Shown: piece after piece, positions 6,001 through 9,000 of the stretch
Layout: each line of letters opens with the position of its first letter
Position numbering within the stretch: position 1 is the stretch's first letter
Position numbers: made by a program
DNA from: a virus
Lineage: Duplodnaviria; Heunggongvirae; Uroviricota; Caudoviricetes
Length of the DNA stretch: 21,332 nucleotides
Direction: 5' to 3' (one strand)
IMG/VR virus record: IMGVR_UViG_2563366990_000019
Location: 1 to 21,332 of that record

Positions 6001-9000
6001 CGTTCGCCTGCCGGATGGGTACCACAAGCCACAAACTGCTGGCCCTTAGCGAGCAGCTCTATTTGTTTGTTTTCGCCTTCCAGGCGGTGACCACGTTTAC
6101 GGTAGTCGCCATCAACAGCAATCAGGTACAGGCATTTATGACTGTCAGCCCGCCAGCGACGTGGCGGAAGTTCCCCCAGGCATGACAGGATAATATTGCG
6201 TACGATCTCCTGCATCCCGGCGTCATTGATATCGCAGTCCAGAGCCACCACCCCGTCGCCAGTACGAACGCAAATACCGTAATCGGGTTCGTTCGACCAC
6301 CGGGAAAAATCGTTTTCCGTAACAACATAGTTAGCCCAGTCGGGGATACCAACAACCTTACGTTGGCCATTGTAGCGACTGGGAGTTTTGCCGAAATTAT
6401 GAGACAGCTTGCTATTAGGCGACAGTTCTGCACAGGGATTGGACACCACAGGTAAAAGCCTGTCTGTCATCCCCAACACCAGATCGAAGTGGAACCACTC
6501 ATCGGGCGTAGCTCCCCAGGGTTTGTTATCAGGCATGGGTTACACCTTTTGCTGCTCTGAATTTTCGCCGTTTAATAGCCAGTCAGGATCGCATTTCAGA
6601 ACTTTTGCCAATTCAAGGATGAAACCGGTACGGGTGGCGCGTCCTGACTCAAGGTATTGAACAGACTGCTGGCGCATGCCAACACTTTCAGCCAATGAAG
6701 TTTGGGTTATACCTAAAGCTTTGCGGCGCTCCTTTATACGTGAAGCAAGGGTAGAACTGGTCATTGAGTAAGCCCTCATTATTACAGGTTTACTTGTAAT
6801 TACCTCACAGGCAACCTTGTTTGTCAAATACAGAAGTATCTGTAATCATCAATGACAGAAAAGGAGTCAACATGAATCTTGCCAACCGAGCTAAAAAACG
6901 CAGAACAGAACTAAACTTAACTCAGGTCGAAGTTGCGAAACGAGCGGGCATTAGCCAGCAGTCGATTGAAGCTATAGAGAACGGGAAAACACTTAAACCA
7001 CGCAATCTTCTTGCTTTAGCGTCAGCTCTTGAATGCGATCCTAAATGGCTACTTCTTGGGGGCGATGTTGTTACAGATTTCAACTACGGAGCCCGAAGGG
7101 TGCCTGTTCTAAGCTACGTACAAGCAGGGGCTTTCACAAGCGCTGAGCTACTTCGTGAAGAAGGTGATTTCGAATACATTCTCACCACGGCTGAGCTATC
7201 AGAAAGTTCATTTGCGCTACGTATACGTGGGGATTCAATGGAACCTGAATTTAAAGAGGGGGACATCGTTATAATTGACACTGACGTATACCCTACTCCT
7301 GGTGAATTCGTTGCGGCATGTAACGGTAGCCACGAAGCAACGTTCAAAAAATACCGCCCGGTAGGGATTGGCGCTAAGGGTGAGGAAGACTTTGAACTTG
7401 TTCCATTGAATAGTGATTACCCTATTTGTCGCTCCTGGGAAAAACCAATTAAGATCATAGGGACAATGGTAGAACATCGCATATTCCGCAGAAAAAGATA
7501 ATCGCATCCTGACTACTAAACAAAGAGGGCTTAGGCCCTCTTTTTTTATTACCTGTAAAAACAAGTAATTAGGTTAATAATGCATTTTATTACCAGAATA
7601 CCTGTTGACGCACTTACAGGTTTGCTTGTATTTTTAACCGCAATAAGTAATCGCTCTTTAACAAACTGAACCGCGTGACAGGTAAGCCGCAGTACTCCTG
7701 GCAAAATGAAATGGCACCCGATGGGATCGAGGTAAGCGCCGAGTCCGTATGCGTACGGTAAGCGTAGAGGACAACACCGCGACGAGCTGATAAGTCACGC
7801 AAATTGAAACGCCCCGATGATGGGGCGTCTGAACCAATGGAGGAAAACATCATGCACAAGTAAAACGCTCAGACCGCAGCAGCCGAACCACCAAAGAGAA
7901 CTGAATGAGGAAACGGTGTGAAAACATATAAACCGCTCAAAGGTGAATGCCCTGCTTGCCAAGCACAACTTCAGGCACCAAAGCCTGAACGATACCAAAT
8001 CAACGAATGTTATGAGCACTGCCCTGAATGTGGTGCTTTCCTGTACGCCATTGCAACGCACTGGCGTGTCCGCTTCAACCTTGTGGTACCTCGTACGCAC
8101 AATACCAACTGAATCATCCATGTAATTGCTGTGTGTAGTCTTTGCCCGCCTCACGTGACGGGCTTTTTTATGTCTGAAAGCGCACTCGCAACAGCGTGCT
8201 CCCCGATATGAAAAAAGGAATACAACCAATGAAACCTGAACACCTCTATCGACTGACGGGGCGCGATGTTCTCCGTTATCGCCGTAAAAACTTCGATTTG
8301 ATGACCGGTCTGGCCGTTGCCACTGCGCTCGGTCTGATCATCACTTTCATTCTCCTTGTAGCGAGGACCACAGTATGAGTTTAGAAACCAGTCTCGAACT
8401 TAATAATCAACTTCTGGCACAACATAATGCGCTGCTTGAACGTCTTATCCGCACAATGGCATCAGGTATTGTTATGCATCCTGACACGATTTCACGAGTG
8501 CAGGAATGTCGGGATACAGCAACTGAAGCTGAAAACATGTCAGCGGCAATGACACTGGATGATCTGGAGTTCAGCGACGTTATCGCACTGGCTGGTTTCT
8601 ACCCGGTAGCCACCCCTATCACAGAAGACATGCTGCAACGTGCTGTTGCCTACCGTGATGCTGAAGGCGATAAACGAGTAGTTCAGATTGATGCTCTCGA
8701 CAGCGCATTACAGGGCGTCAAACGAGCCAGGGCGCTGCTTAAACCTGCTCTCCTGGACCTGTCCCGTAACATTCTTAAGTTCTGGGACGACCTGCCAACC
8801 ATCGGCGAGCGACGTGCTTTTGCCGAGCAGCTACTTGATGCACCTGCAGATGGGCGTGATGAAGTTAAGCCGAAAAGGGCCAGTAACAAAGATGGAGAAC
8901 GCACGGGGCCGTTTTACGTCAAAAATGTATCCGGCACAGCAGCCAGTGAACTCCACACCTTACGCAAGTTGAACGAGATGCTGAAAAAAGGCCATATCGA

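Follow-up and report, generated by a model that had tools for sequence, protein, structure and literature searches.

Does a single repressor govern both early operons of this prophage through one set of operators, and to which family of switches does it belong? We addressed this question for IMG/VR virus record IMGVR_UViG_2563366990_000019 (Caudoviricetes), positions 1 to 21,332; this whole 21,332-nucleotide stretch is called the window below. The system under study is its divergent cI/cro switch together with the promoter downstream of cI. A sequence-only reading had pointed to near-identical 17-bp operators in both places and had proposed that one CI-like repressor controls both early operons, as in lambda. 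Our analysis indicates that the window very probably carries a diverged copy of the phage 434 immunity region, set in an Escherichia coli prophage with a non-lambdoid replication backbone, and with operators that are predicted from sequence. The earlier proposal is correct in outline, and the switch is of a known kind rather than new in kind.

A predicted 14-bp operator recurs in two promoter regions

The three sequences on which the proposal was built are present exactly as quoted. TTACAGGTTTACTTGTA at 6782-6798 and TTACAGGTTTGCTTGTA at 7614-7630 are one base apart, and TACAGAAGTATCTGTA is found at 6829-6844. When both strands of the 21.3 kb were searched for the 17-mer TTACAGGTTTRCTTGTA with no more than three mismatches, 6782-6798 and 7614-7630 were the only matches. 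Two matches compare with 0.09 expected, and two or more were reached in 0 of 100 shuffles. A repeat finder joined 6829-6846 to the 17-mers and also raised a related site at 7587-7605.

The predicted functional and conserved unit is a 14-bp operator, ACAR-N6-YTGT, which we read as a palindrome of the type found in phage 434 (ACAA-N6-TTGT). The consensus suggested earlier, TTACAG-N5-CTTGTA, over-specified the flanks of this unit. Exactly four matches to the core occur across the window, every one of them in the two promoter regions (1.45 expected; four were reached in 5 of 100 shuffles). Three of these matches are spaced at an exact 23-bp period within one 107-bp divergent intergenic region. Because the three share this period in a single intergenic region, we regard the switch sites as non-random. 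Matches with one mismatch are at chance level across the window (31 observed, 29 expected).

Five operator sites match the core with at most one mismatch, and most of the strong ones are asymmetric, with ACAG in one arm and ACAA in the other. All three sites listed in the sequence-only reading are real, but O2 (6807-6820), 7592-7605 and the degenerate 7561-7574 had been overlooked, so that two sites plus one become three plus two or three. The site at 6829-6844 had also been called weaker. That ranking was based solely on 17-mer similarity, and we find that this is the only site with perfectly symmetric arms and that it stands in the place of 434 OR3.

One further sequence, ACAGGTTTATCTGA at 17613-17626, was considered as an operator and rejected as a single-mismatch match of the kind that occurs at chance level. 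It sits in the gap after a Rha-like open reading frame (17079-17609).

The switch aligns with the right operator of phage 434

Phage 434 operators are 14-bp sites, three in the right operator (OR) and three in the left operator (OL), and their outermost four plus four bases are conserved with a single exception (reference sequence ACAATNNNNATTGT; PMC1636474). For comparison we used the phage 434 genome OL657226 (locus L086), in which the operators are annotated as CI sites. The elements of the window switch are as follows, with the L086 coordinates and the offset between the two sequences in brackets.

6784-6797: predicted operator O1, the OR1 equivalent, ACAGGTTTACTTGT; covers the region where transcription from the leftward pR-like promoter is predicted to start (about 6792, minus strand); core match, aligned with the annotated 434 OR1 (L086 2405-2418, offset 4379; the record gives 2406-2418, taken here as a 14-bp site).
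6799..6804, minus strand: predicted leftward -10, GGTAAT, 17 bp from the -35; placed by the position of the 434 pR -10 (L086 2419-2424, offset 4380).
6807-6820: predicted operator O2, the OR2 equivalent, ACAGGCAACCTTGT; lies in the leftward-promoter spacer and abuts the -35 of the cI promoter; core match, aligned with 434 OR2 (L086 2427-2440, offset 4380).
6821..6827: overlapping back-to-back -35 hexamers found by promoter scan, TTGTCA for the cI promoter (plus strand, 6821-6826; 434 pRM -35 at L086 2441-2446, offset 4380) and TTGACA for the cro promoter (minus strand, 6827..6822; 434 pR -35 at L086 2442-2447, offset 4380).
6830-6843: predicted operator O3, the OR3 equivalent, ACAGAAGTATCTGT; occupies the spacer of the cI (pRM-like) promoter; core match, aligned with 434 OR3 (L086 2450-2463, offset 4380).
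6844..6849, plus strand: -10 of the cI promoter, AATCAT, with TG just before it; found by promoter scan and by the position of the 434 pRM -10 (L086 2464-2469, offset 4380).

A five-way DNA alignment added to this correspondence. The stretch TTGTTTGTCAAATACAG takes in O2's right arm, the two -35 hexamers and O3's left arm, and it is invariant in the window, phage 434, a Yersinia phage, a Pantoea locus and a Gilliamella locus.

A second predicted operator set follows cI

The DNA beyond cI can be aligned to 434 OL3-OL2-OL1-pL with no gaps. Successive sites are 31 and 24 bp apart in the window, with 7592-7605 to the left of 7616-7629, versus 31 and 23 bp in phage 434. The elements are these.

7522..7551, plus strand: intrinsic terminator after cI, a 9-bp stem followed by a T run; found by terminator scan.
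7561-7574: degenerate OL3-like candidate site, ACAAGTAATTAGGT, with a good left arm and a poor right arm; 31 bp before the next site, as 434 OL3 is before OL2.
7592-7605: predicted OL2-like site, ACCAGAATACCTGT (reverse complement ACAGGTATTCTGGT); borders on the downstream promoter's -35 and overlaps it; one core mismatch, aligned with 434 OL2.
7605..7634, plus strand: pL-like, sigma-70-like promoter with -35 TTGACG at 7605-7610, an 18-bp spacer and -10 TATTTT at 7629-7634; found by promoter scan and aligned with the 434 pL region.
7616-7629: predicted OL1-like site, ACAGGTTTGCTTGT; occupies the spacer of the pL-like promoter; exact core match, aligned with 434 OL1.

The layout, cro <- pR, OR, pRM -> cI -> terminator -> OL/pL -> second early operon, is thus that of lambda and 434 in reverse orientation. 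The terminator stem after cI is kept in relatives through compensatory changes. On weak evidence, 7561-7574 may be an OL3-like site; it is kept in window-type relatives, and loci L008 and L088 read ACAAGTA..TATGT there. An everted palindrome, TTACCTGTAAAAACAAGTAA (7550-7569), was rejected as an extra operator, since its CCTGT arm is not kept in relatives L002 and L003, and only the ACAAG half persists, as the OL3-like site.

A leader follows the pL-like promoter. A perfect rrn-type boxA, GCTCTTTAACAA, is present at 7653-7664, about 12 nt past the predicted pL-like start (about 7642), and no N homologue was seen alongside this boxA-bearing leader. Heteroimmune phages carry the leader from 7653 on (7653-7830) in near-identical form. 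Its first 48 bases (7653-7700) turn up again in most of the 85 E. coli genomes with a match. The leader RNA at 7641-7845 matched no Rfam family, and its folding was no better than that of shuffles (z = -0.03).

The window encodes 434-type CI-like and Cro-like proteins

The switch lies between two divergent genes.

6872..7501, plus strand: cI-like repressor gene, 209 aa, with a 434-type helix-turn-helix (HTH) domain and an S24 autocleavage domain (Pfam HTH_3 and Peptidase_S24).
6540..6764, minus strand: cro-like gene, 74 aa (Pfam HTH_3, E 1.3e-13), first gene of the leftward early operon (cro, Prim-Pol/VapE primase-helicase, Q).

Among solved structures in the PDB, those nearest to the CI-like protein's N-terminal domain are 434 Cro (1.3e-14) and 434 repressor (1e-12), and the full protein also aligns with full-length lambda CI (E 1.8e-14). 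Against the 434 repressor of OL657226 it shows 35% identity over the full length (E 9e-31). The best structural match of the Cro-like protein is 434 Cro (2.7e-15), followed by 434 repressor (4e-14), and it is 50% identical to 434 Cro of OL657226 (E 5e-22). The recognition helices are also of one type: QQSIEAIENG in the window CI and QQSVQYLESG (RQQSVQYLESG) in the window Cro-like protein, compared with QQSIEQLENG in 434 CI and QQSIQLIEAG in 434 Cro. In the protein alignment, Ala85-Gly86, Ser122, Lys159/160 and the QQS of CI are invariant.

These data suggest that the Cro-like protein is a small, divergently transcribed HTH protein of the same all-helical type as the N-terminal domain of the repressor. 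The earlier statement that both proteins are unrelated to lambda in sequence fails for CI, as the lambda CI match, the HTH_3 and Peptidase_S24 domains and the identity to 434 repressor show; the Cro-like protein has its nearest counterpart in 434 Cro.

Operator arms are conserved and the sites track the QQS helix

Twenty-six complete E. coli genomes contain the immunity region with a coverage of at least 80%. In L002, an E. coli prophage 87% identical overall, O1 is unchanged, O2 keeps its arms with the centre changed from AC to CT, and O3 keeps its arms with four central bases changed. The OL1-like site of L002 becomes identical to O1, and its OL2-like site reads ACAAGAATACCTGT, a perfect core match. 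Among window-type relatives O1 is invariant save for one arm base in L008, and the OL1-like site is kept in all, with one variable central base that is G or A.

The same pattern of kept arms and variable centres was seen in Erwinia, Mixta and Symbiopectobacterium loci and in two viral contigs. The second sites of these loci (O2 and OL2-like) often have a CTGGT/ACCA arm, as expected if they are intrinsically weaker sites that are filled cooperatively.

We then compared operators and repressor helices across 115 loci with CI homologues (one genome per species, plus viral contigs). The 125 bp preceding each cI were scored for the presence of two or more ACA-N8-TGT sites (background expectation 0.06 sites per 125 bp), and the CI helix alone was scored. 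At least two sites were present in 58 of the 63 loci with a QQS-helix CI, always 22 or 23 bp apart, and in none of the 52 whose CI has a different helix. Downstream of cI, too, most QQS loci bear two sites at a distance of 23-24 bp; inserted genes have displaced the pair in some of them.

Arm position 4 follows the helix less simply. It is A in 434 and the QQSIES group, G in the QQSW.. and QQSYQA groups, and mixed in the QQSIEA group of the window, where one arm has ACAG and the other ACAA. Gln33 was rejected as a simple rule for this position, since the QQSIES group combines Ser there with ACAA arms. Trp or Tyr at position 31 is a better guide to ACAG arms, and across the loci compared no single residue accounts for position 4. 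A literature search for 434 contact residues returned nothing relevant, as did a text search for the operator sequences of the window.

A heteroimmune relative provides a further comparison. Phage vB_EcoM-606R2 (L001) has both flanks in common with the window, namely the primase gene and, at the opposite end, the leader (7653 onward), but its repressor helix is unrelated. An 18-nt motif of its own, AATATCCGATAACGCATA, occurs once in the switch (L001 8430-8447) and twice at the promoter downstream of its repressor (9249-9284). These copies are candidate operators of another specificity. Because vB_EcoM-606R2 shares the flanks but has another repressor and another motif, the exchangeable cassette (about 6552-7652) takes in both operator regions, as expected if operators and repressor co-evolve.

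Alternative explanations for the sites

One alternative is that the sites serve mainly or solely the Cro-like protein, with CI acting elsewhere or through other sequences. The Cro-like protein too has a QQS helix and is the nearer of the two to its 434 counterpart. Moreover, the covariation test scored the CI helix only, and cro travels with cI in the cassette, so this test cannot separate the two proteins. However, CI and Cro of phage 434 both bind the same six operators, and the window CI has the same QQS helix. No other repeated palindrome was found in either promoter region. CI and Cro sharing the sites is more likely than exclusive use by Cro, which we consider improbable.

Another alternative is a host regulator as the reader of these sites. 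Were they LexA boxes, or targets of another host protein, the prophage promoters would be under direct SOS control. The arms do hold ACAG and CTGT, the same tetramers as the LexA box, but the window has them in the order ACAG-N6-YTGT, the inverse of CTGT-N8-ACAG. In Pantoea/Yersinia-type relatives (L009, L005 and similar), the 22-bp spacing of ACAG-N6-CTGT does make a CTGT-N8-ACAG across the O1/O2 junction, as read by eye. With one mismatch allowed, no LexA core was found in 6770-6870 or 7590-7640, and the sites follow the helix type of the phage repressor, not the host. Taken together, we find host control very unlikely.

Finally, that the 17-mers are a chance repeat or a promoter-associated sequence with no operator role is scarcely credible, for although simple counting makes one 16/17 match in 21 kb no great rarity, the shuffles, the exact 23-bp period, the arm-specific conservation, the base-for-base correspondence to 434 operators and the QQS co-occurrence (58/63 vs 0/52) all speak against it.

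Several points weigh against the main reading of the region. By itself, the exact-core count exceeds chance only marginally. The leftward -10, GGTAAT, is a weak hexamer that the consensus promoter scan missed, and the third OL site has just one good arm. The Fisher P value for the QQS co-occurrence (2e-27) is descriptive only, as the loci are phylogenetically related, although the two groups of loci separate cleanly. Finally, site affinities cannot be transferred from 434, because the strong sites of the window are mostly asymmetric, unlike those of 434 (mostly ACAA) and of the Pantoea/Yersinia/Gilliamella group (ACAG in both arms).

A model for repression of both early operons

We return to the reading of the region as a diverged 434 immunity region with operators shared by CI and Cro. 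The proposal that the divergent switch and the promoter of the other early operon share operators, the OR-plus-OL logic of lambda and 434, is borne out by positional homology to 434, arm conservation and QQS co-occurrence. That one repressor would shut off both early operons is well supported by homology. We infer binding, occupancy order, cooperativity, activation of the cI promoter and SOS induction from 434 and lambda.

CI dimers, and later Cro-like dimers, would read the outer operator bases through the 434-type helix-turn-helix. In the lysogen, CI bound to O1 and O2 would occlude the leftward promoter at its start region and spacer, silencing cro, the primase-helicase gene and Q. CI on O2 would adjoin the cI promoter's -35, with its centre near -42 relative to a start predicted at about 6857. 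Such a placement has the geometry for positive autoregulation, and CI there probably stimulates the cI promoter. At high concentration CI would also fill O3, whose place in the spacer of the cI promoter suits negative autoregulation or the action of Cro, and would turn that promoter off.

At the second promoter, CI on 7592-7605 and 7616-7629 would cover the -35 edge and the spacer and so block the pL-like promoter, which is predicted to drive the operon for a nuclease, SSB and DNA polymerase. Because Ala85-Gly86 and the Ser122/Lys160 dyad are invariant, RecA-stimulated self-cleavage, and with it SOS induction, is expected. Cleavage of CI at Ala85-Gly86 would release both operons, after which Cro would bind the same sites and turn cI off.

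More tentatively, the window CI and Cro may define a distinct immunity specificity within the 434 family. We think this rather unlikely. The suggestion comes from the asymmetric, presumably high-affinity operators O1, O2 and OL1, with ACAGG in one arm and ACAAG in the other, perhaps together with the change of 434 Gln33 to Ala in CI and to Tyr in Cro. If it holds, the asymmetry of the arms, and not the central bases, would decide in which order the sites are filled and how they discriminate between CI and Cro. A 434-type switch would then run a non-lambdoid, N-less replication and late-gene backbone that is able to carry Stx2a.

The analysis gives a testable operator map for the CI of the Eru10-like E. 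coli prophage type, a map that can inform studies of prophage stability and of toxin induction. With it come about 60 natural variants of the 434 pair of operator and recognition helix, which could be used in specificity studies. Understanding of how such switches work is unchanged.

Genes and RNAs flanking the switch

On the minus strand, the cro-like gene is followed leftward by a gene for a 739-aa Prim-Pol/VapE protein and then by that for the Q antiterminator. Further along this strand, 456-3661 holds the Q antiterminator gene (3239-3661), a tRNA (2996-3069), an STnc100 small RNA (2655-2860) and a gene for a NanS-like esterase (456-2432). This gene order is that of Stx phages, but without stx genes.

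The pL-like operon encodes a DUF2800 nuclease, an Enc34-type SSB and a family A DNA polymerase, among other genes, and an integrase gene lies beyond it on the opposite strand. An RprA-like RNA match at 8064-8173 (plus strand) scored 50.4 bits (E 2.5e-5), under the gathering score of 70; it ends in a terminator, and the stretch is also kept in phage vB_EcoM-606R2. Immediately before a Bro-N antirepressor-like open reading frame (11492-12292) there are two Rfam matches, isrK (11292-11365, 54 bits) and C4 antisense RNA (11391-11477, 76 bits). The stretch 11292-12292 looks like a second, P1/P7 immI-like antirepressor control module inside the pL-like operon.

Comparison with known systems

Going by their published description, the Eru10 non-lambdoid Stx prophages match the window in their gene order of cI, Prim-Pol (PF09250) and Q (PMC8951638). 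That paper classifies the CI proteins and replication modules of these phages and describes no operators (PMC8951638). The immunity region of the window is 99.8% identical in the Stx2a prophage of E. coli 89-3156. In contrast to the Eru10 Stx prophages, the window lacks stx genes in the interval from Q to the nanS-like gene.

With lambda, the window shares divergent pRM and pR promoters with a tripartite operator, and a second operator set at a pL promoter that lies downstream of cI and points in the same direction. It also shares a repressor with HTH and S24 domains, whose C-terminal domain aligns with lambda CI. The DNA-binding helix differs. Operators of lambda are 17 bp long and of different sequence, and lambda Cro has a fold that differs from that of 434-type Cro. 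No N, cII, O or P domains were found in the flanks of the window, so the early region is not classed as lambdoid.

The third comparison is with phage 434. The window differs from it in having G at position 4 on one arm of most sites, where 434 has G only in OR3, and in having Ala in CI at the position of 434 Gln33. There is no hex gene between cI and OL in the window and a terminator is in its place, the OL3 site is degenerate, and the flanking operons are non-lambdoid. Both have 14-bp operators with outer ACA(A/G)...(T/C)TGT arms kept and centres variable, three of them 22-23 bp apart between divergent cI and cro, and in both the overlapping -35 hexamers and the two -10s are placed identically. 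Both also have a second set of operators, spaced at 31 and 23-24 bp, where a further promoter follows cI. In each, CI combines a QQS helix with an S24 domain, and Cro is a repressor-like, all-helical HTH protein. Every defining feature of a 434-type immunity region that can be examined in sequence was found in the window system.

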